Source: Escherichia phage vB_EcoM_PD205
Sequence record: ON922919
Reading direction: 5' to 3' (one strand)
Length of the DNA: 64,000 bases
The number at the start of each line of letters is the position of its first letter. Positions within the stretch are counted from its first letter, which is position 1. The notes under the pieces are model-generated. The model had not been told where the DNA came from. It did no database searches and saw only the letters and a list, made by a program, of their open reading frames with translations. Of this stretch, positions 5,437 through 63,705 are shown piece by piece. The position numbers and the translations under genes were made by a program.

Positions 5437-8141
5437 ACGCACATACCCCCTTTGATGCAAATCAGGATTGGACCAATCCTTACTGCCAGAATAGTTCCAA
5501 CGACCCAATGGTAGATGCACTACTTGGTAATGCTTACCATGTGGTTCGTACTGTGTACTGCAACCTAGGTAACCTTAAACTCATTTATGATTTCTTGAAT
5601 AAATATGGAATGGTGTTAGGTGTTCAATCAGAAACTGAACTGAAGGCCATGCCTACCAGTGCATCCTATGTACGACTGTATGGTTTTGATAATACCAATA
5701 AGAGAGTTGTTACAGACTATCTGTATGTAGATGGGGATCGTACAGGTGTAATTCCGGATGACCCTTCCGCTACTGGTTCCTGGATTTTGGTTGCTACTTC
5801 TAATTCAGATAGTGGTGGAGATGATGGTGAAGGTAAAGCATCACCACCATACATTCCATACTCATATAATAATGGTTCTGCTATCGGGGGAGAAACCACT
5901 ATTGCAGTACCTGTTGGTACGGTTGGCGTGCCAATGATTGTAATTGATGGCTATACCAACTTGGTTGGTTATGGTTTTACTTATGATGCATCTACACTAA
6001 CTGTTACCCTGGCTCAACCATTGGAACCAGGTGATGAAGTACATCTGTTCTTGACAGGTACTCCAGCAGTTCCTGATAACCCTAATGTAACTGACTGGGT
6101 TCAGATTAACTGGTTATACAATGGTGGTTATGCTTCTGGCGGTGAACAGGTAATTCAGATTCCATACACCTTCCAATCTGTGCCTGCTATTTATAAGAAT
6201 GGTGCTCGTTATTATGCTGGTCTGGTAGAGAACTCATATACTGCTGATGCTGATAACCAACGTATTCTGTTAACTGAGCCACTGGCAACTAATGACCGTC
6301 TTATCGTTACTATCGGCGGTGAGTCTGAGACATTGATTATGACTGACCGTACCATTCAGGAAGTGGCACGTTCAGCTAATGTTAAAGATACTGAAATTAT
6401 TCTGAGTACTAATACTACCCAGTACCTCAATGGTATGAAGGTTGTCTATGACGTAGTTGCTCAAAAGATTTATGGTCTGCCGACGTTACCGACCAATGTC
6501 TATATTAATTCTGTATCTAATGGTCAGTTAACTTACTCACCAGGAAGTATTACCGTAAACCTGTTACCTGTTCCAGGCTCCATGGAAGAATTTGAAAATA
6601 AACTAGCTTTGGATGTAGGAGCTTCTACTATTGGAACTGAGTCCGGTAAGACTGTCCAAGAAGAGTTGGATACTTTAGAAGAAACATCAACGATTCTTGC
6701 GAATAGTATCTATAAGCCCATACCTGTTAAATATTCCCCAAATTATTCTCAGGTAATGGTGGCATCAGTTAATCCGCAAGGTCTAGCCCAGGATGCTACT
6801 TATTGGTACATTACAGAAGATACCTCTTCTGGTGGTGCTTACACTTGTACCCTAAGTCGTATTAATAAGGTTACCAATACCAAAGAATCATTCCCAGGTA
6901 CGTTTGGTACACATGGGCAAGGCATCGGTATTCTCCCCTCTGGCGAAGTATTCATTGGAGGGGCTACTAACAGTTTTATCACAGTAATTAACTTCGCAGC
7001 AGGTACTTCTTACCAGGTAGCCTGTACTGGTTTTATGAAAGATTTTCCTTTCTGCTATGACAGTAAAACTGATTTGATTTACCAGTTACAGGATGCTGAT
7101 GGTACATCAGCTAATATTACTCGTATTGCTGTACTTAGCCGTACCGCTGGTTTTATCTCTGATAACTCTATTGACCGTAAGTTAGTCAAGCCAGGGTATC
7201 CACAAGGTATTACTACAGATGGAAGTTTTCTGTATGTTACCTGTGGTAATTCTTGGTCTGCTGCTTCTACTGGTACATGGAATGATTACTGGGCTTGCTT
7301 TAAAGTTTCCTTGACAGGACAAGTTATAGAGCGAGCAATGTTCCGTAGAACCTCTATGGGTGTTTTGGCAGGTGGTATTACAGTTACTTCTCACGAACCA
7401 CAAGCAGTATCTTGGTTTGAGGGTAAGCTGTCTTTCCTACAGTGTATTGGAAGTTCTTCAGCAACTAATGCTGTAATTTTTACTGAAGATGCTGAAGGTA
7501 GTGCAATACGTGCTGTACCAAAAAACCTTTGGGTAAGCTACTACTCCCTGGATGAACTTGGTATTAATGCTGCATCCTTAGTTGCTGGTTCTGCTCTGTC
7601 CACAATTGCAGCAGCAATGCCTGATAACTCTGATGTAACCTTCTCCCTAAGTAATGAAGCAGCATTACTTGCTGATACAGGTATTGGGTATGGTGTATGT
7701 AAGATTACTCGCGTAAATGCTAACCGAATTAATGCAGTAACTACAGAAGCCAGTTCCGGTTTAACTTCGTCGCAGGTATGTGCTGTATCATACGTTGGTA
7801 TCTACGGGTCTGTGCAAAGTGCTCCTAAGCTTTTACGTGGTGTTAAACCAGTAGCACTTGCTTATGAGGGGACTACTGTTGCAACAGCACCCTCTACAAT
7901 AACAGTTTCCGGTATTGCAAACTGTAATGAGTTGGTAATCCATATCACTCATACCAGTGGGACTAATCCAGTAACCCCACATAAATTCACAAGAGATGAG
8001 ATTAGTTATTACGTTACAAATGCTACAACTCTCTATCTTGGTGATGGTACTGGGTTTATGTCTTGCCAGTTTACATCTACCGGGTTATCCATTACAGGTG
8101 TCACTGGTTCTCCGATTGTTAGACGTGTTCTAACTATTTAA
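5427..8141 (+). CDS. large virion/tail protein (N4 gp66-like by position)
   Basis: 904 aa, Gly/Thr/Ser-rich beta-type composition typical of tail and adhesin proteins; position after terminase. Confidence 0.5.
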   Translation: MAMNAHTPFDANQDWTNPYCQNSSNDPMVDALLGNAYHVVRTVYCNLGNLKLIYDFLNKYGMVLGVQSETELKAMPTSASYVRLYGFDNTNKRVVTDYLYVDGDRTGVIPDDPSATGSWILVATSNSDSGGDDGEGKASPPYIPYSYNNGSAIGGETTIAVPVGTVGVPMIVIDGYTNLVGYGFTYDASTLTVTLAQPLEPGDEVHLFLTGTPAVPDNPNVTDWVQINWLYNGGYASGGEQVIQIPYTFQSVPAIYKNGARYYAGLVENSYTADADNQRILLTEPLATNDRLIVTIGGESETLIMTDRTIQEVARSANVKDTEIILSTNTTQYLNGMKVVYDVVAQKIYGLPTLPTNVYINSVSNGQLTYSPGSITVNLLPVPGSMEEFENKLALDVGASTIGTESGKTVQEELDTLEETSTILANSIYKPIPVKYSPNYSQVMVASVNPQGLAQDATYWYITEDTSSGGAYTCTLSRINKVTNTKESFPGTFGTHGQGIGILPSGEVFIGGATNSFITVINFAAGTSYQVACTGFMKDFPFCYDSKTDLIYQLQDADGTSANITRIAVLSRTAGFISDNSIDRKLVKPGYPQGITTDGSFLYVTCGNSWSAASTGTWNDYWACFKVSLTGQVIERAMFRRTSMGVLAGGITVTSHEPQAVSWFEGKLSFLQCIGSSSATNAVIFTEDAEGSAIRAVPKNLWVSYYSLDELGINAASLVAGSALSTIAAAMPDNSDVTFSLSNEAALLADTGIGYGVCKITRVNANRINAVTTEASSGLTSSQVCAVSYVGIYGSVQSAPKLLRGVKPVALAYEGTTVATAPSTITVSGIANCNELVIHITHTSGTNPVTPHKFTRDEISYYVTNATTLYLGDGTGFMSCQFTSTGLSITGVTGSPIVRRVLTI

Positions 8142-58363: not shown

Positions 58364-58390
58364 AAAAAAGCCCACGGGTTAGGTGGGCTT
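58364..58390 (-). terminator. intrinsic terminator
   Basis: AAGCCCAC...GTGGGCTT hairpin preceded on + strand by AAAAAA. Confidence 0.6.
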
Positions 58391-58462: not shown

Positions 58463-58741
58463 CTACTCTGCTTTACTGCCACCATTGGTTTGAACAACAG
58501 TTACATTCGTAACCTGGTTCTGACCTTTGTTGGACAGTGCCCAAATAAGTGCTACTACCCAGAATACTAGTGACCAGCCTAATACGATATTGAGCACACC
58601 AATACCCCACTTAGAGGCATGGCCTCGTGCAAAAGCAATGATAGTAGGGATAAGGTATACAGCTAATACAAACAACATAACAAGGATTGCTGCTAAAGAT
58701 TCCATGATGGTTCCTATGTGGGGTTGAGTTAGTTTCTTCAC
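58463..58741 (-). CDS. superinfection-immunity-like small membrane protein
   Basis: 92 aa; two TM helices; AFARGHASKWGIGVLNIVLGWSLVFWVVALIWAL resembles the Imm_superinfect family signature. Confidence 0.45.
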   Translation of the reverse strand: MKKLTQPHIGTIMESLAAILVMLFVLAVYLIPTIIAFARGHASKWGIGVLNIVLGWSLVFWVVALIWALSNKGQNQVTNVTVVQTNGGSKAE

Positions 58742-58778: not shown

Positions 58779-58988
58779 TTACTCAGCATCTTTGCTTGCA
58801 GGAGCAAGAGCTTTCTTCAGGTAATTACGTACCGAACGATAGGTTTCTTTGGTGTCCATAGTACTATCATTTACGAATGTGATACGTGCACAATCAGACA
58901 GTGGAATTTGTTCCACTCCTACTACATTTGCAGCATTAATGGTTACACGTACATCTGAGGTTGCATGAGTTACTTGAAATACTGACAT
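58779..58988 (-). CDS. hypothetical protein
   Basis: 69-aa ORF. Confidence 0.3.
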   Translation of the reverse strand: MSVFQVTHATSDVRVTINAANVVGVEQIPLSDCARITFVNDSTMDTKETYRSVRNYLKKALAPASKDAE

Positions 58989-58997
58989 GTTGTTTCC

Positions 58998-59504
58998 TTA
59001 TTTACTGCTTCTTGCAGCTATTGGTTTGTTTTCCTGGTTCTGATACTTGCCATTGTAATTAGCAGGTTCCTGAACCAGATGAAATAATACTTGAGCTATC
59101 CCAGAACCAGCCGGGATATGCAATTTCTTACGACCATGATAAACCAGTTCAAGAGTCAAATACCCTTTCCATCCTGGTTCTATTACGGTATTGAATACAG
59201 ATAATGCACGTCTTGCCCATGTAGACTTATCGTGAACGATAGCTACACAGGATGGGGACATGTTGAACTTCTCAATTGCTGAAGCCAATGTGAATTTACC
59301 GAGATGGCGTGATACTTTGTTTCCATCAACGACCTTCACTATTGGAATCAACCCAAATAAGCGATAGAAGGTGATATCTTGTTTGATACGAATATCGTAA
59401 CCGGCTTCGCCCAATCCATAGCTTACACCATGCTCGGATATCTTACGGTCTGGGACATCCAGCAACTGAGATGAACGATATAGAGAATTACCGTTAACAA
59501 CCAT
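58998..59504 (-). CDS. dCTP deaminase/dUTPase-superfamily protein
   Basis: 168 aa; VIEPGWKGYLTLELV matches the family D-P-G-x-x-G-x-x-T-L-E-L signature. Confidence 0.5.
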   Translation of the reverse strand: MVVNGNSLYRSSQLLDVPDRKISEHGVSYGLGEAGYDIRIKQDITFYRLFGLIPIVKVVDGNKVSRHLGKFTLASAIEKFNMSPSCVAIVHDKSTWARRALSVFNTVIEPGWKGYLTLELVYHGRKKLHIPAGSGIAQVLFHLVQEPANYNGKYQNQENKPIAARSSK

Positions 59505-60679
59505 TATTTCATTCCTTTAGGGATATGAACTACCTCCCCAAAAGGTATGGTAGCATTAGGATTATTCAGAACACACCAGATGATAGGGATATCAAATGGC
59601 AATTCTTCCATTGGACGAACATACATATCGGAGAATATGATTGCAGCGGTTGGCTTATTTTTAATAATCCATTCGCGTACTGGTTCCAGGTTTGTACCAC
59701 CACGACCAGTAATCTTAATCTCTTCGAATGTATCTTCTTCAGTGATGTCTATCTCTTCTTGAATAACATCGTCGAAGGTAATTAGTGACATCTTCCTAGG
59801 ATTGAACTGGCTCTTAACGTAGGCAACCTCTGAGTTAAAACGCAGAGAGTCAGCACTACTAATAGAACCAGATACATCCTCAAAGTAGGCTAAGTGCCGT
59901 AAGCGTCCTTCATCATCTTCCAGTGATGGTAGATAGATATCAGTGTAACGACGGTTAGGTCTGGCCCACGTATAGTGTGTGTCATCAATGTCGGTAAAGA
60001 AGTTCATCAGAACTTCCTGCCATGGAACCACTGGTTTAAGGAATTGGGTAATAACCTCTTCTATACGTCCAGCACCTTTACCAGGCATCTGTCCACCAGC
60101 CATCTTCTGGCTCTGCATTGCACGTACTACGTTGTTGACAACAGCACCCTGGGACTGACCCGAAGTGGGGGATTTCATGTCGCCAGCAAGACCTGCTCCA
60201 GCACCCCCCGACGGCTTCTGCCTTTTCTGAGGGTTCTTCATCAGGTCATCGTAGATGTCTTCTTCGACCCAATCCTTATATTGAGGGTCTTTGCAAATGC
60301 CTTTGTCAATACCAGTGAACTTGTAACCATCTTCCTCTAACTGAAGGTTAATGAAGTGGTCACATGCCTGGTTCCAAACTTCCGGGTCACGGCTTCCACG
60401 ACGGATGTCATGTAGATATGCTACATGCCAGAGTTCGTGCATTAATACTGTTTCTCTTGCATCTGGACACATCCAGATAAAGAAATCAGGATTGAAATGG
60501 AGTTCTATCCCATCAGTACATGCAGTGGGACAATCTTCACGTTTCCATGAGAATTTAAGACTACACAGTAATGAACCAAAGAAGGCTGCGCTGCGTCCGA
60601 GAAACGCCTGCGCCTGAATACGGTCATACTCACGCATGAGTTGTTCATCACTAAGTGTGTGCTGAGGAAATTGGTTCAT
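59504..60679 (-). CDS. vWA-like protein with HExxH metallopeptidase-like motif (partner of AAA+ ATPase)
   Basis: 391 aa; HELWHVAYLH motif; translationally coupled downstream of MoxR-like ATPase. Confidence 0.45.
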   Translation of the reverse strand: MNQFPQHTLSDEQLMREYDRIQAQAFLGRSAAFFGSLLCSLKFSWKREDCPTACTDGIELHFNPDFFIWMCPDARETVLMHELWHVAYLHDIRRGSRDPEVWNQACDHFINLQLEEDGYKFTGIDKGICKDPQYKDWVEEDIYDDLMKNPQKRQKPSGGAGAGLAGDMKSPTSGQSQGAVVNNVVRAMQSQKMAGGQMPGKGAGRIEEVITQFLKPVVPWQEVLMNFFTDIDDTHYTWARPNRRYTDIYLPSLEDDEGRLRHLAYFEDVSGSISSADSLRFNSEVAYVKSQFNPRKMSLITFDDVIQEEIDITEEDTFEEIKITGRGGTNLEPVREWIIKNKPTAAIIFSDMYVRPMEELPFDIPIIWCVLNNPNATIPFGEVVHIPKGMK

Positions 60680-60686
60680 GTTGTGA

Positions 60687-61739
60687 TTATCCGTGAATAT
60701 AGCGAGAGATATTAGCAGCAGCCTTACGCCATTCAGGGGTAGCCTGAAGTTCTGGTAATGCTCTGCCTACTGTACGGAAGTACAGAATCTTATGGGTGAA
60801 CGTTTTAAAGCGTTCGATGTACTGAAGAACATCAACAAAGTTCTCTTCAGTAGTTTTGTTAGCCAGATGGTTAACGGTAGCCCAGCACAGGTTGTTATCT
60901 TCTGGTAGTGCACAGCCAAGTGGGTCTTTTACTACCTTCTCAATCGTAATGATACGATTATATACCTGGGTGAACTGAACAAATTCTGTAGCTTTACCAG
61001 CAGTAACGTGTCCTGCGTAGTAAAGAGAATCTTCATCAGGCAGAGCACCTTCTGGTAAGTTCTTGAGGTCTTTATTAACAAAGTCCCAAGTACGAGGACA
61101 ACAGAACGTTTTGTTCTTATGTGCTGGATCGAAGTCATGCAGATAACCTGGATTAGCATGTAAGAATGCAACCAGACGTTCATCCCATTGCTGAGGAATC
61201 ATTACGTCTTCAACAAAGATGTCGAAGTTAAGTTCCATTTCAAAGTGAACCACACGAGACTGCATTGCAGTACCCAGTGGGTTAACAATGGCACGGTCAG
61301 TGGCTTTGTTACCAGCACAGACAATCATCACATTAGGATGAAGTTTTTTCTGACCAGTCATGCGGTCGAGAATCAGTTTGTATGCAGCAGCTACTACCTC
61401 TTTCTTAGCTGAGTTGAACTCATCAAGGAACAGGAGCCAGCCGTTATAACCCTTTGGTACTTCATCCCCTTCAATAGGGAATAAGTCAGCGAATGGAATA
61501 AACTCTGCATGGTCACCATTACGGAATGGTAAACCAGACAGGTCTTCCGGAGCAGAAGTAGACAGACGATGGTCTATCAGCTTCATACCAAATTCTTCTG
61601 CAATAGAACGAATGATTGCAGATTTACCCATACCTGGGGATGAAGTCAGGAACGGTACGTTACCTGCTTTCAGGGCACGGATAATAAAGTTACGAGCTTG
61701 ACGTGAATTACATACAGTCAAGGAGTCAATGCTTGCCAT
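60687..61739 (-). CDS. MoxR-like AAA+ ATPase
   Basis: 350 aa; Walker A SSPGMGKSAI, Walker B LLFLDEFN. Confidence 0.6.
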   Translation of the reverse strand: MASIDSLTVCNSRQARNFIIRALKAGNVPFLTSSPGMGKSAIIRSIAEEFGMKLIDHRLSTSAPEDLSGLPFRNGDHAEFIPFADLFPIEGDEVPKGYNGWLLFLDEFNSAKKEVVAAAYKLILDRMTGQKKLHPNVMIVCAGNKATDRAIVNPLGTAMQSRVVHFEMELNFDIFVEDVMIPQQWDERLVAFLHANPGYLHDFDPAHKNKTFCCPRTWDFVNKDLKNLPEGALPDEDSLYYAGHVTAGKATEFVQFTQVYNRIITIEKVVKDPLGCALPEDNNLCWATVNHLANKTTEENFVDVLQYIERFKTFTHKILYFRTVGRALPELQATPEWRKAAANISRYIHG

Positions 61740-61773
61740 TTACTTACTCTCCTAAAGCTAATGGAATTACTGA

Positions 61774-62103
61774 TTAAGATTTAGTGCAGGGATATGCCTT
61801 GTGTACTGAGTACACAACAATTTGAGATGTATTCTTCATCTTGAGGATTGCAGAATCATAAATAACTACTTTGGCAATCTTAGGCAGAATGACTGAATAC
61901 TTAATACCTTCGGGAACACAGTTATTTGTACTCTCGATGTAAGAGATCATACTGCCCATGAAGAATCCTTGTCCGAACTCATCACGAGTGTCATCCAGGT
62001 AAGCTTGAGCACCTTCCAGAATTGGTTCTGGTTCAATTGCTTGTGCATTTGGAACCAAAACTATCAGTGCAGCTACTGCAATACCTTTAAGTAGAGTTTT
62101 CAT
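61774..62103 (-). CDS. small secreted/periplasmic protein
   Basis: 109 aa; signal peptide MKTLLKGIAVAALIVLVPNAQA; two Cys in mature part. Confidence 0.45.
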   Translation of the reverse strand: MKTLLKGIAVAALIVLVPNAQAIEPEPILEGAQAYLDDTRDEFGQGFFMGSMISYIESTNNCVPEGIKYSVILPKIAKVVIYDSAILKMKNTSQIVVYSVHKAYPCTKS

Positions 62104-62499: not shown

Positions 62500-62530
62500 A
62501 AAAAAAGACCTCCCTTCGATGGGGAGGTCA
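62500..62530 (-). terminator. intrinsic terminator
   Basis: GACCTCCC...GGGAGGTC hairpin preceded on + strand by AAAAAAA. Confidence 0.7.
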
Positions 62531-62581: not shown

Positions 62582-63415
62582 TTATTCTGCAACAGTAACA
62601 GGGATGGTCACATCGACCGTACCATTGGTAACTACTACAGAAGTAGCATCACCAGCAGTCACTGGTTTAACCGTCAGTACGTTACCAGTAATGGTAGCTG
62701 TAGCACGCCCAGAATCTGGGGCTGTCTTAATAGATAAAGTACCAGCAGAAGAACCAACGGGCATAGCAGCAATTGTTACGGACTTACCATTAGTAGTATC
62801 GGCAGCAACAGATAGAGACAGTGAAGCAGGAGTAGCTACTAGTGAGCTTGCTTCATAGTAACCTACAGCCAGCAGCGACGTATCTTCTACCGTGGTTCCA
62901 TTAGCGTCAGTAACAATCACTTTATAAGTACCAGCAGAAGCAGCTGTTACATCATTAAGAGTCAATGATGCAGTAGCAGCGGATGGGTTAGTACTGGAGC
63001 TAATATCAGCGAATGCTGCACCAGCGGTATCAGCTTTGAATTGCCATTTATAAGTAAATGGTGCTTTACCGCCTGCTACATCAACATGCCAGTTAATATC
63101 TTCACCTTCGATAGCAGAGACTACACGAGGCAGTTTGGTAGCAATGGTCAATCGTGGAGTAGCCTTCATATCAATAGAGATAGACTGCATATCCACGATG
63201 TTATTAGGCCAGAATCCTTCTTCAGCAGGATTTTTAGCAGAGCGTTTATACAGCAGATCACGAACACCGTGATAGATAACTAAGCTATCAGGGTAAGTGG
63301 CATCTGGGTGCTCAAAGGTTCCTACTTCTACGGAACCACCTGGAATAGAACCACTGGCATCCAGTACAGTTGCAACATTAGTGGTTTTGTTAAAACCTAC
63401 TTTCAAAGTTGGCAT
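62582..63415 (-). CDS. Ig-like domain protein
   Basis: about 278 aa from Met at 63415 (RBS GAGGA); Ig-like repeats with patterns such as GTYKVIVTDANGT and TVKPVTAGDATSVVVTNG. Confidence 0.5.
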   Translation of the reverse strand: MPTLKVGFNKTTNVATVLDASGSIPGGSVEVGTFEHPDATYPDSLVIYHGVRDLLYKRSAKNPAEEGFWPNNIVDMQSISIDMKATPRLTIATKLPRVVSAIEGEDINWHVDVAGGKAPFTYKWQFKADTAGAAFADISSSTNPSAATASLTLNDVTAASAGTYKVIVTDANGTTVEDTSLLAVGYYEASSLVATPASLSLSVAADTTNGKSVTIAAMPVGSSAGTLSIKTAPDSGRATATITGNVLTVKPVTAGDATSVVVTNGTVDVTIPVTVAE

Positions 63416-63461
63416 ATCAATTTCCTCATAAGTAAATAGCAGGATTAGTATACATGACATG

Positions 63462-63491
63462 TAAAAAAATAAACCCTCCGTTAAGAGGGTT
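63462..63491 (-). terminator. intrinsic terminator
   Basis: AACCCTC-CGTTAA-GAGGGTT hairpin preceded on + strand by AAAAAAA. Confidence 0.6.
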
Positions 63492-63705
63492 AGTTGTTTA
63501 CACAGTAGATAGCAAAAGCTATCCATCCTGCCATTACAAAGCAGCCTAGTGAGTATGCTCCATAGTAGTAATAAGCAAACTTAGATTTGTGGGCATGAAC
63601 TATTGTAGACAGAACCAGTACAGATAAAACTATCAGTATTAGCTGAGAGATTACTTCAAAAGGGATTAGCATAGTTATTACCTCCAAGCAAAAAATATGC
63701 CTCAC
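63490..63705 (-). CDS. small membrane protein
   Basis: 71 aa; two hydrophobic helices. Confidence 0.35.
   Translation of the reverse strand: MRHIFCLEVITMLIPFEVISQLILIVLSVLVLSTIVHAHKSKFAYYYYGAYSLGCFVMAGWIAFAIYCVNN

Follow-up and report, generated by a model that had tools for sequence, protein, structure and literature searches.

Two adjacent genes of Escherichia phage vB_EcoM_PD205 probably encode a two-component, ATP-driven module for protein remodelling and cleavage, orthologous to gp24 and gp25 of phage N4. The window that we analysed, a stretch of 64,000 nucleotides (ON922919), comes from a G7C-like coliphage (Gamaleyavirus, N4-like) and has ~95% DNA identity to deposited genomes. The evidence concerns the gene structure, domain identity, conserved sites, folds and orthology of the two proteins, as well as their pairing across phages and plasmids. 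The preliminary description had reported a 350-aa ATPase with a Walker A motif, followed directly after only 7 nt by a 391-aa partner with a HELWH motif; both ORFs were found at these sizes (the first including LTSSPGMGKSAII, the second LMHELWHVAYLH) and the 7-nt gap was read in the spacer between them. It had not given the strand, which is the minus strand for both genes. The locus comprises the following features:

62507..62529, minus strand: strong terminator-like hairpin, upstream, at the start of the transcription unit
61747..61753, minus strand: Shine-Dalgarno sequence AGGAGAG, read 7 nt 5' of the ATPase ATG
60687..61739, minus strand: AAA+ ATPase gene (MoxR/dynein/midasin-clade motor), 350 aa, N4 gp24 ortholog
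60680..60686, minus strand: intergenic spacer, 7 nt between the ATPase TAA and the cofactor ATG
59504..60679, minus strand: cofactor gene (zincin-like domain, flexible linker, vWA domain), 391 aa, N4 gp25 ortholog
58998..59504, minus strand: dCTP deaminase gene, outside the core pair, its ATG overlapping the cofactor stop (TAATG)
58368..58390, minus strand: strong terminator-like hairpin, downstream, at the end of the transcription unit

The ATPase gene has a good Shine-Dalgarno sequence, and no clear ribosome-binding site for the cofactor gene was read in the 7-nt spacer. Given this spacer devoid of a Shine-Dalgarno sequence and the TAATG stop/start overlap, the ATPase, cofactor and dCTP deaminase genes are probably translationally coupled. 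The whole unit, of ~4.1 kb, contains three small ORFs, the ATPase, the cofactor, the dCTP deaminase, a 69-aa ORF and an Imm-like protein. The pair is located on the same strand as RNAP2, dCTP deaminase, ThyX and rIIA/B, within the middle (replication-phase) gene block that also holds dCTP deaminase and ThyX. Neither ORF is a product of chance, since both have PHROG matches (1e-132 and 1e-143), Pfam matches (see below) and numerous homologous protein clusters (1716 and 1075), and both are under purifying selection, as deduced from the large excess of synonymous over nonsynonymous codon differences with phage 24-32N (52 against 14 in the ATPase, 66 against 13 in the cofactor). The antisense and alternative-frame ORFs within the region lack family support, bar one database artefact.

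Sequence comparison identifies the pair as the G7C-like version of N4 gp24/gp25, and as such it is already known. The window proteins are identical to those of N4 at 62% of positions over 350 aa and at 60% over 379 aa. N4 has the same order of ATPase, cofactor and dCTP deaminase, likewise among its middle genes, although 167 nt separate the ATPase and cofactor genes there instead of the 7 nt in the window. In N4, both genes are transcribed as middle genes, and a comparison of 25 N4-like phages counts them among 14 core genes (PMC4193335).

The cofactor is covered over its whole length by two Pfam domains, DUF2201_N (PF13203; 3.7e-56, 191.2 bits against a cut-off of 23.2) and DUF2201 (PF09967; 6.8e-34, 117.1 bits against a cut-off of 26.4), in the order characteristic of the 'VWA-like domain-containing protein'. 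The domain search for a DUF2201-like protein proposed in the preliminary description thus placed both domains above their gathering thresholds, and its view of the 391-aa protein as a vWA/HExxH protein is borne out by a vWA fold, a complete MIDAS and an invariant HExxH. Conservation of these sites was examined in two alignments, one of 25 N4-like sequences and the other of nine very distant phage and plasmid homologs (22-46% identity), and the HExxH motif, D107 and the MIDAS residues are invariant in both:

59921..60631, minus strand: DUF2201_N putative metallopeptidase domain, residues 17-253 (Pfam)
60425..60439, minus strand: HExxH motif H81-E-L-W-H85, with H81, E82 and H85 invariant
60359..60361, minus strand: D107 of the 'NxAxDxxxN' motif, invariant, candidate third metal ligand
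59522..59893, minus strand: vWA domain, residues 263-386
59864..59878, minus strand: MIDAS motif D268-V-S270-G-S272, invariant in both alignments
59693-59695, minus strand: MIDAS-completing T329, invariant in both alignments
59627-59629, minus strand: MIDAS-completing D351, invariant in both alignments

In the structural model, the HExxH motif is carried by a helix (residues 72-87) that follows two strands (53-55 and 59-62). A profile built from eight distant N-domains weakly matched M48/HtpX and minigluzincin chains (E 0.005-0.01) over the strand and the HExxH helix. We tentatively read the N-domain as zincin-like, with a putative peptidase activity suggested by the HExxH motif; the nearly invariant H90 is an alternative candidate for the third metal ligand. 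Residues ~150-260 are modelled with low confidence as a Gly/Ser-rich linker plus helices (pLDDT <50 at residues 157-164 and 201-252). The C-terminal domain adopts a vWA fold with a complete MIDAS (DxSxS...T...D), and its fold matches include the NorD vWA and midasin MIDAS domains and, among the top ones, the CLCA1 vWA domain. A sequence search of the PDB with the cofactor retrieved no real match.

The ATPase retains the complete AAA+ catalytic set of Walker A, Walker B, sensor-1, arginine finger and probable sensor-2, also in distant homologs. Its features, with invariance assessed in 25 homologs, are:

61620..61637, minus strand: Walker A/P-loop P35-G-M-G-K-S40, with P35, G38, K39 and S40 invariant
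61443..61562, minus strand: helix-2 region with inserted beta-hairpin, residues ~60-99 (AF2 secondary structure)
61419..61424, minus strand: Walker B D106-E107, invariant
61308..61310, minus strand: sensor-1 asparagine N144, invariant
61254..61256, minus strand: arginine finger R162, invariant
61092..61094, minus strand: probable sensor-2 arginine R216 of the 'CPRTW' motif, invariant

Among the distant homologs, those of the cyanomyovirus S-TIM5, Burkholderia and Synechocystis keep R162 as well as a 'PR[ST]W' motif in the sensor-2 region, where R216 is the probable sensor-2 residue. The AF2 model predicts that a beta-hairpin is inserted into helix 2 of the AAA+ core: elements H64-68, E70-74 and E77-81 come after strand 2 and precede the Walker B strand (100-106), and this region bears an invariant S62-x-P64-x-D66-x-x-G69-x-P71 motif in the 25 homologs. 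Some relatives carry a group I intron inside the ATPase gene, at the helix-2 region. Against Pfam AAA_5 the window ATPase scores 17.3 bits (cut-off 22), and its full-length homologs of S-TIM5, Burkholderia and Synechocystis reach 25.0-25.7 bits, above the cut-off. Midasin, which falls within the AAA_5 family, was the sole and weak (2.5e-4) match of the ATPase in a PDB sequence search; by fold comparison, the closest solved structures are CbbQ and NorQ and the closest relatives belong to the MoxR clade. As PDB sequence matches are weak for the ATPase and absent for the cofactor, the classification is founded on predicted folds. The MoxR-like AAA+ identity proposed in the preliminary description agrees with the intact catalytic set, the helix-2 hairpin of the model, the MoxR-clade structural relatives and the linked vWA gene. 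The ATPase probably forms a hexameric ring.

Pairs of this kind had been said to be known in bacteria and some N4-like phages, which is indeed the case, both for the N4 orthologs and for plasmid pairs. Across 79 related viral loci, the ATPase gene lies upstream of the cofactor gene on the same strand in 78, the sole exception ending at a contig edge; dCTP deaminase is encoded downstream in 63 (median gap 17 nt) and ThyX in 48. In 12 related loci, further ORFs separate the ATPase gene from the cofactor gene; they encode small, lineage-specific proteins, plus one ORF that is RtcB-like by sequence motif, and no conserved third partner is among them. The genes upstream of the DUF2201 gene in AlexBoehm (annotated as 'anti-sigma factor') and Callisto were considered and are not ATPase homologs. 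The pair recurs with a full-length ATPase homolog in S-TIM5, flanked by Hsp20 and a 'virion structural protein and packaging' gene and with ThyX nearby. With such an ATPase it is also present in rV5-like phages, with the genes ~4 kb apart, on the Synechocystis plasmid pSYSA, among toxin-antitoxin and defence genes, and on plasmids of Burkholderia (beside type IV secretion genes), Cupriavidus and Variovorax. In jumbo phages, K64-1 and SE_PL among them, tblastn located the two proteins as well. The cofactor profile matches 21,698 cluster representatives. A search of genome contigs retrieved six loci, all of N4-like sequence, and no cellular DUF2201 homologs, which were reached through the plasmid tblastn. 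The betaproteobacterial plasmid cassettes contain a third conserved gene that has no homolog within the window, so that the phage system may rely on a factor from the host or from an unlinked gene.

Several known systems offer a guide to how such a pair could operate. CbbQ/CbbO (Rubisco activase) and NorQ/NorD (nitric-oxide reductase maturation) belong to the CGN subfamily of MoxR proteins and have vWA cofactors, and the chaperone/co-chaperone logic of MoxR-vWA pairs has been reviewed (PMC7159879). Midasin (Rea1/Mdn1), of the AAA_5 family, has a MIDAS domain that is a structural match of the cofactor vWA and grips an acidic residue while the AAA ring pulls; it differs in that six AAA modules are fused in one giant eukaryotic chain, without a peptidase, which acts in ribosome biogenesis. 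The self-cleaving CLCA proteins, like the cofactor, combine an HExxH zincin followed by a vWA domain in one polypeptide (PMC3650047), although they are eukaryotic, secreted and devoid of an AAA+ partner; the likeness is one of architecture only. The MoxR-vWA ternary conflict systems (VMAP, iSTAND, FtsH, beta-propeller; Kaur et al. 2020, PMC7159879), which have been proposed to act by thresholding or remodelling when bacteria are in conflict with invading elements, have the MoxR + vWA core in common with the window pair, but their hallmarks are a third component and effector domains, both of which the pair lacks. The one link to these systems is a sub-threshold match to bpX6 in the neighbouring 69-aa ORF (16.6 against 27 bits). 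An NCBIfam scan of both proteins gave nothing significant, and PADLOC returned sub-significant hits for the ATPase (DolB 0.0059, IetA 0.066) and none for the cofactor; therefore, the pair is neither a recognised defence system nor a named bacterial equivalog. An AAA+/vWA chelatase such as BchI/BchD or CobS/CobT was also considered and set aside, as neither a vWA subunit whose N-domain is AAA-like nor a separate H/N subunit for binding metal or porphyrin was encountered.

In the mechanism that we propose, the 350-aa MoxR-clade ATPase would act as a ring, probably hexameric, with the 391-aa protein as its cofactor. The cofactor would dock onto the ring, perhaps via its flexible linker, and the MIDAS metal site of its vWA domain would grip an acidic residue of the client, as the MIDAS domains of CbbO, NorD and midasin do. 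ATP hydrolysis would then pull or remodel the client, and the N-terminal zincin-like HExxH domain might subsequently cut it, or cut the cofactor itself. Because the genes appear translationally coupled and lie in the middle block with dCTP deaminase and ThyX, the expected client would be a host or replication-phase protein rather than a virion protein. In this scheme, we infer that the two proteins are physically coupled and that the N-domain acts as a peptidase, and likewise which kind of client is handled and when; the literature that we searched contained no functional study of DUF2201, N4 gp24/gp25 or the Schitoviridae MoxR family. A more specific proposal, which we hold to be possible though unlikely, is that the pair represents a distinct two-component AAA+ protease of mobile elements that, soon after entry, would seize and cut particular host proteins, such as defence or stress-response factors, and so help the element to become established. 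Expression before the late genes, the plasmid neighbours and the invariance of both active sites across elements are compatible with such a protease, which would embrace N4-like, rV5-like, jumbo and cyano-phages together with conjugative and other plasmids.

A role in virion assembly or maturation, with the pair acting as a chaperone-protease that assembles and processes structural proteins, also appears unlikely, but it has a published antecedent. In 2021, Iyer et al. described a MoxR + metallopeptidase-vWA pair in group 2.2 jumbo phages and proposed a virion role for it, by analogy with tail development by p618/p892 of Acidianus two-tailed virus (PMC7824862). The jumbo-phage pair is homologous to that of the window and follows the same two-gene logic, in which the vWA co-chaperone carries a metallopeptidase at its N-terminus, although it is distant (~25-29% identity). 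The archaeal virus pair p618 (MoxR)/p892 (vWA), the sole viral MoxR-vWA pair studied experimentally and a precedent cited in two further papers (PMC7159879, PMC3893208), belongs to the RavA subfamily; p892 forms tail-growth filaments and has no peptidase domain, and we saw no detectable sequence relationship between p618/p892 and the window pair. Gene neighbourhoods lend the virion role some support, as the S-TIM5 pair adjoins the structural and packaging gene and the gp24/gp25 homologs of roseophage RPP1 have virion-protein genes close by (PMC4193335). However, N4 gp24/gp25 are middle rather than late genes, the window pair is co-transcribed and apparently translationally coupled with dCTP deaminase in a replication/nucleotide-metabolism block, and homologous cassettes occur on plasmids, which make no virions. 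The middle-gene and nucleotide-metabolism context and the plasmid homologs point to a role more general or earlier than that proposed for the jumbo phages.

We regard as quite unlikely that the pair is an enzyme-activating or metal-inserting chaperone of the NorQ/NorD, CbbQ/CbbO, CoxD/CoxE or chelatase type, in which the HExxH motif would hold a metal without cutting and the client would be a metabolic enzyme to be matured or reactivated, for example a neighbouring enzyme of nucleotide metabolism. CbbQ and NorQ being the closest solved ATPase structures, and the NorD vWA figuring among the vWA matches, would fit such a chaperone, as would the recurrent dCTP deaminase and ThyX neighbours, the latter also near the S-TIM5 pair. 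This link with nucleotide metabolism is nevertheless absent in the rV5-like phages and in all the plasmid contexts examined; moreover, both alignments keep the HExxH glutamate throughout, the residue that serves zincin peptidases as general base, and the N-domain has sequence similarity only to peptidases. To our knowledge, CbbO, NorD, CoxE and the chelatase D subunits have no zincin-like N-domain. The 'HNH endonuclease' label that PHROG 1314 and many RefSeq records, including N4 gp25, attach to the 391-aa protein is supported by the database label alone and is wrong, and such an activity is almost inconceivable, for Pfam detected no HNH or other nuclease domain in the cofactor at E values up to 0.01 and the fold is that of a vWA protein. 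Genuine HNH homing endonucleases do exist in some relatives, inside the group I intron of the ATPase gene, and their proximity to the cofactor gene makes them a plausible source of the mislabel.

The window adds nothing beyond deposited genomes, but the widespread 'HNH endonuclease' annotation of the cofactor protein should be corrected. N4-like phages are used in phage therapy, and gp24/gp25 are among the very few genes common to all of them; the same module is scattered across phages and plasmids that are not related. Identification of its client would account for a central step in the infection cycle of Schitoviridae and would add a protease-bearing variant to the repertoire of MoxR-vWA chaperones.

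The two genes constitute a known module that is also found in other phages and on bacterial plasmids. The preliminary description, which took them for a MoxR-like ATPase coupled to a vWA/HExxH protein with an unclear role in infection, had read them correctly, since they are orthologs of N4 gp24 (62% identity to the ATPase) and gp25 (60% identity to its partner, here called the cofactor) and have been described before. As in N4, where gp26 (dCTP deaminase) comes next after gp25, a dCTP deaminase gene follows the cofactor gene. A 2009 study of roseophages listed gp24 as “putative ATPase, AAA superfamily” and gp25 as “vWFA super-family” (PMC2784036), and 25 N4-like phages share a core of 14 genes that includes both, which are described as middle genes of N4 (PMC4193335). 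We found no experimental work on this module in the literature searched, where subscription journals were thinly covered, so that this absence is no proof, and the window gives no fresh handle on the role of gp24/gp25.

The phage is a G7C-like coliphage (Gamaleyavirus, Schitoviridae), and the 3.2 kb around the pair share 92-95% DNA identity with 55 deposited phage genomes, including vB_EcoP-ZQ2, St11Ph5, ECBP1, and pSb-1. Sizes, motifs, and spacing had all been reported accurately, with only the strand (minus) left unstated. The pair lies in a unit of ~4.1 kb with the following landmarks:

62529-62507, minus strand, terminator-like hairpin at one end of the unit
60687..61739, minus strand, ATPase ORF, 350 aa
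59504..60679, minus strand, cofactor ORF, 391 aa
58390-58368, minus strand, terminator-like hairpin at the other end of the unit

This unit contains three small ORFs, the ATPase, the cofactor, the dCTP deaminase, a 69-aa ORF, and a T4 Imm-like membrane protein. ATPase and cofactor are obligately linked and probably translationally coupled. Their ORFs are separated by 7 nt; the ATPase gene has a good Shine-Dalgarno sequence (AGGAGAG), inspection of the sequence revealed none ahead of the cofactor gene, and the stop codon of the latter overlaps the dCTP deaminase ATG (TAATG).

Several neighbors deserve mention. The Imm-like superinfection-immunity protein (58463-58741, minus strand; Pfam Imm_superinfect, 8.9e-17) is encoded within the same terminator-bounded unit. 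The 69-aa ORF just downstream of the dCTP deaminase (58779-58988, minus strand), which just 8 of the 79 related loci share, has a sub-threshold match to Pfam bpX6 (E 0.0074, 16.6 bits vs a cut-off of 27), a domain of MoxR-vWA-beta-propeller ternary systems; the match is probably due to chance, though curious so near a MoxR-vWA pair. Directly upstream of the ATPase gene, a 109-aa ORF (61774-62103, minus strand) restricted to close relatives (7/79 loci) carries a typical signal peptide at its N terminus (MKTLLKGIAVAALIVLVPNAQA); it is labeled “tai4 protein” (type VI amidase immunity protein) in phage 24-32N, has no Pfam match, and falls in PHROG 11132, of no known function. A Hoc-like Ig-domain head-decoration gene (62582-63526, minus strand, as listed from an upstream ATG) lies between RNAP2 and the ATPase unit, a structural gene inside the early/middle-strand block. 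Its true start is probably at ~63415, because the PHROG profile aligns from residue 38 onward (MPTLKVG...).

Sequence profiles gave only a generic assignment for the ATPase: Pfam AAA scored 27.1 bits and AAA_5 17.3 bits, under its 22-bit cut-off, PHROG 1297 (“ATPase”) matched at 1e-132, and the top PDB sequence match was midasin (2.5e-4). The protein is a MoxR-like AAA+ motor with an intact catalytic set. Across 25 homologs (51-89% identity), Walker A (P35, G38, K39, S40), Walker B (D106, E107), the sensor-1 N144, the Arg finger R162, and R216, the arginine of “CPRTW” and probably sensor-2, are invariant, and codon changes relative to phage 24-32N are 52 synonymous and 14 nonsynonymous. An out-of-frame 83-aa ORF inside the gene (60932-61183, minus strand) matches positions 185-266 of PHROG 16335 (“ATPase”; E 1e-36). 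We rejected it as an overlapping gene and consider it a database artefact. The genuine ATPase covers positions 1-186 of this profile with its residues 1-187, and frameshifted gene models evidently went into that PHROG, the 268-aa Uz-1 entry P0183 possibly among them.

Some relatives within Gamaleyavirus (PW8, pSb-1, Bp4) have an ATPase gene split by an insert of ~870 nt that encodes an HNH homing endonuclease (in PW8, locus L014, 3031-3898, minus strand). Three more IMG/VR loci (L024, L030, L058) have an interrupted gene, and ZC03 and JA-1 also have split ATPase genes with an HNH gene. The insertion follows codon L67 within the invariant SxPxDxxGxP motif (61537-61542 in the window, codons L67|S68, where the gene has no intron), with T as the last base of exon 1 and G as the last base of the insert. 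Rfam Intron_gpI scores 25.6 bits (E 4e-4, under the gathering score), and the insert is probably a group I intron.

The cofactor combines a zincin-like HExxH N-domain with a C-terminal vWA domain (DUF2201_N and DUF2201). Among 25 N4-like sequences, H81, E82, H85, D107, and all five MIDAS residues (D268, S270, S272, T329, D351) are invariant. The same holds in an alignment of nine very remote members (22-61% identity), which come from N4, a Mesorhizobium element, plasmids of Burkholderia, Synechocystis, and Rhodococcus, cyanophage S-TIM5, and one rV5-like and one jumbo phage. Such invariance, even among distant members, indicates that the HExxH and MIDAS sites are kept by selection; codon changes relative to phage 24-32N are 66 synonymous and 13 nonsynonymous. 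A profile built from just the N-domain matches M48/HtpX peptidases and minigluzincins (MJ1213) over the strand and HExxH helix (E 0.005-0.01). The name “HNH endonuclease” of PHROG 1314, which has spread into many RefSeq annotations of DUF2201 cofactors, including N4 gp25, is wrong, as Pfam and fold searches detected no nuclease domain; the true HNH genes of the neighboring intron are a possible source of this mislabel.

A tblastn search retrieved 729 phage records for the cofactor and 828 for the ATPase, among them Schitoviridae, rV5-like Vequintavirinae, jumbo phages, cyanophage S-TIM5, and roseophage CRP-7. In 78 of 79 related IMG/VR loci (38-98% identity) the ATPase gene is upstream on the same strand, the sole exception ending at a contig edge, with a median gap of 82 nt. 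A dCTP deaminase follows the cofactor in 63 of these loci, and 48 have ThyX in the flank. In S-TIM5, Hsp20 is followed by the MoxR-like ATPase and the cofactor, with ThyX a few genes later; the S-TIM5 ATPase is 30% identical over its full length, C-terminal domain included. One related viral contig (L062) has a 480-aa ORF (6538-7980) inserted between the two genes, which we judge to be RtcB-like from its “HHGSRGFG” stretch, and other lineages have small conserved ORFs there (families of ~60-70 and ~120 aa).

The cofactor family is large and ordinary, comprising mobile-element and bacterial proteins: when 1.84 billion cluster representatives were searched with its profile, 21,698 relatives scored at E <=1e-3 and 5,256 at E <=1e-30. 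The cofactor is present on 94 plasmids. On the Synechocystis plasmid pSYSA, its gene comes after that of a “MoxR family ATPase” amid toxin-antitoxin and DUF262 genes. Burkholderia, Cupriavidus, and Variovorax plasmids (L011, L095, L097) carry a three-gene cassette of ATPase, a ~300-aa protein conserved among the three (28-59% identity) without Pfam match, and cofactor, which in Burkholderia pBMC401 sits immediately upstream of a type IV secretion operon; the window has no homolog of the additional cassette gene. Two bacterial contigs are also noteworthy. A 727-kb Mesorhizobium yinganensis contig (L004) contains the N4-like block ATPase, cofactor (45% identity), dCTP deaminase, and ThyX, and a 297-kb Roseococcus MAG contig (L003) contains a cofactor 50% identical, preceded by an ATPase-sized ORF. 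This suggests integrated or domesticated N4-like elements, with misassembly or binning error as the alternative; N4-like phages are regarded as strictly lytic and integrated elements would be unusual.

In MoxR-vWA systems, the vWA MIDAS grips a client at an acidic residue or peptide, and ATP-driven force is delivered by the AAA+ ring. By analogy, the phage pair would capture a client through the cofactor MIDAS site and remodel it with ATP, and the zincin site would cleave the client or the cofactor itself. A sub-stoichiometric adaptor, of the kind present in the 6:1 CbbQO and NorQD complexes, would be consistent with the weak ribosome-binding site of the cofactor gene. We are highly confident in the identities of the parts, and moderately so in this capture, remodeling, and cleavage. 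MoxR-vWA systems (CbbQO, NorQD, RavA-ViaA, midasin) have been reviewed (PMC7159879, PMC3893208). NorQD/CbbQO-like enzyme maturation is suggested by the structural neighbors and by the synteny with dCTP deaminase and ThyX, but that gene order is confined to certain lineages, and the invariance of the HExxH glutamate speaks for catalysis. A role in virion assembly and processing (Iyer et al. 2021) is possible and has a precedent in Acidianus two-tailed virus (p618/p892), but fits poorly with middle-phase timing and with the plasmid homologs. Pfam and PADLOC scans did not support membership in a MoxR-vWA ternary conflict system or any PADLOC system.

Within the capture-and-cleavage reading, any particular client is doubtful. 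A further, improbable reading is that of a two-component AAA+ protease shared across mobile elements and serving host takeover or counter-defence. We favor a host or replication-phase protein as client over a virion protein because of the middle-phase expression, the coupling to nucleotide-metabolism genes, and the presence of the module on virion-less plasmids.
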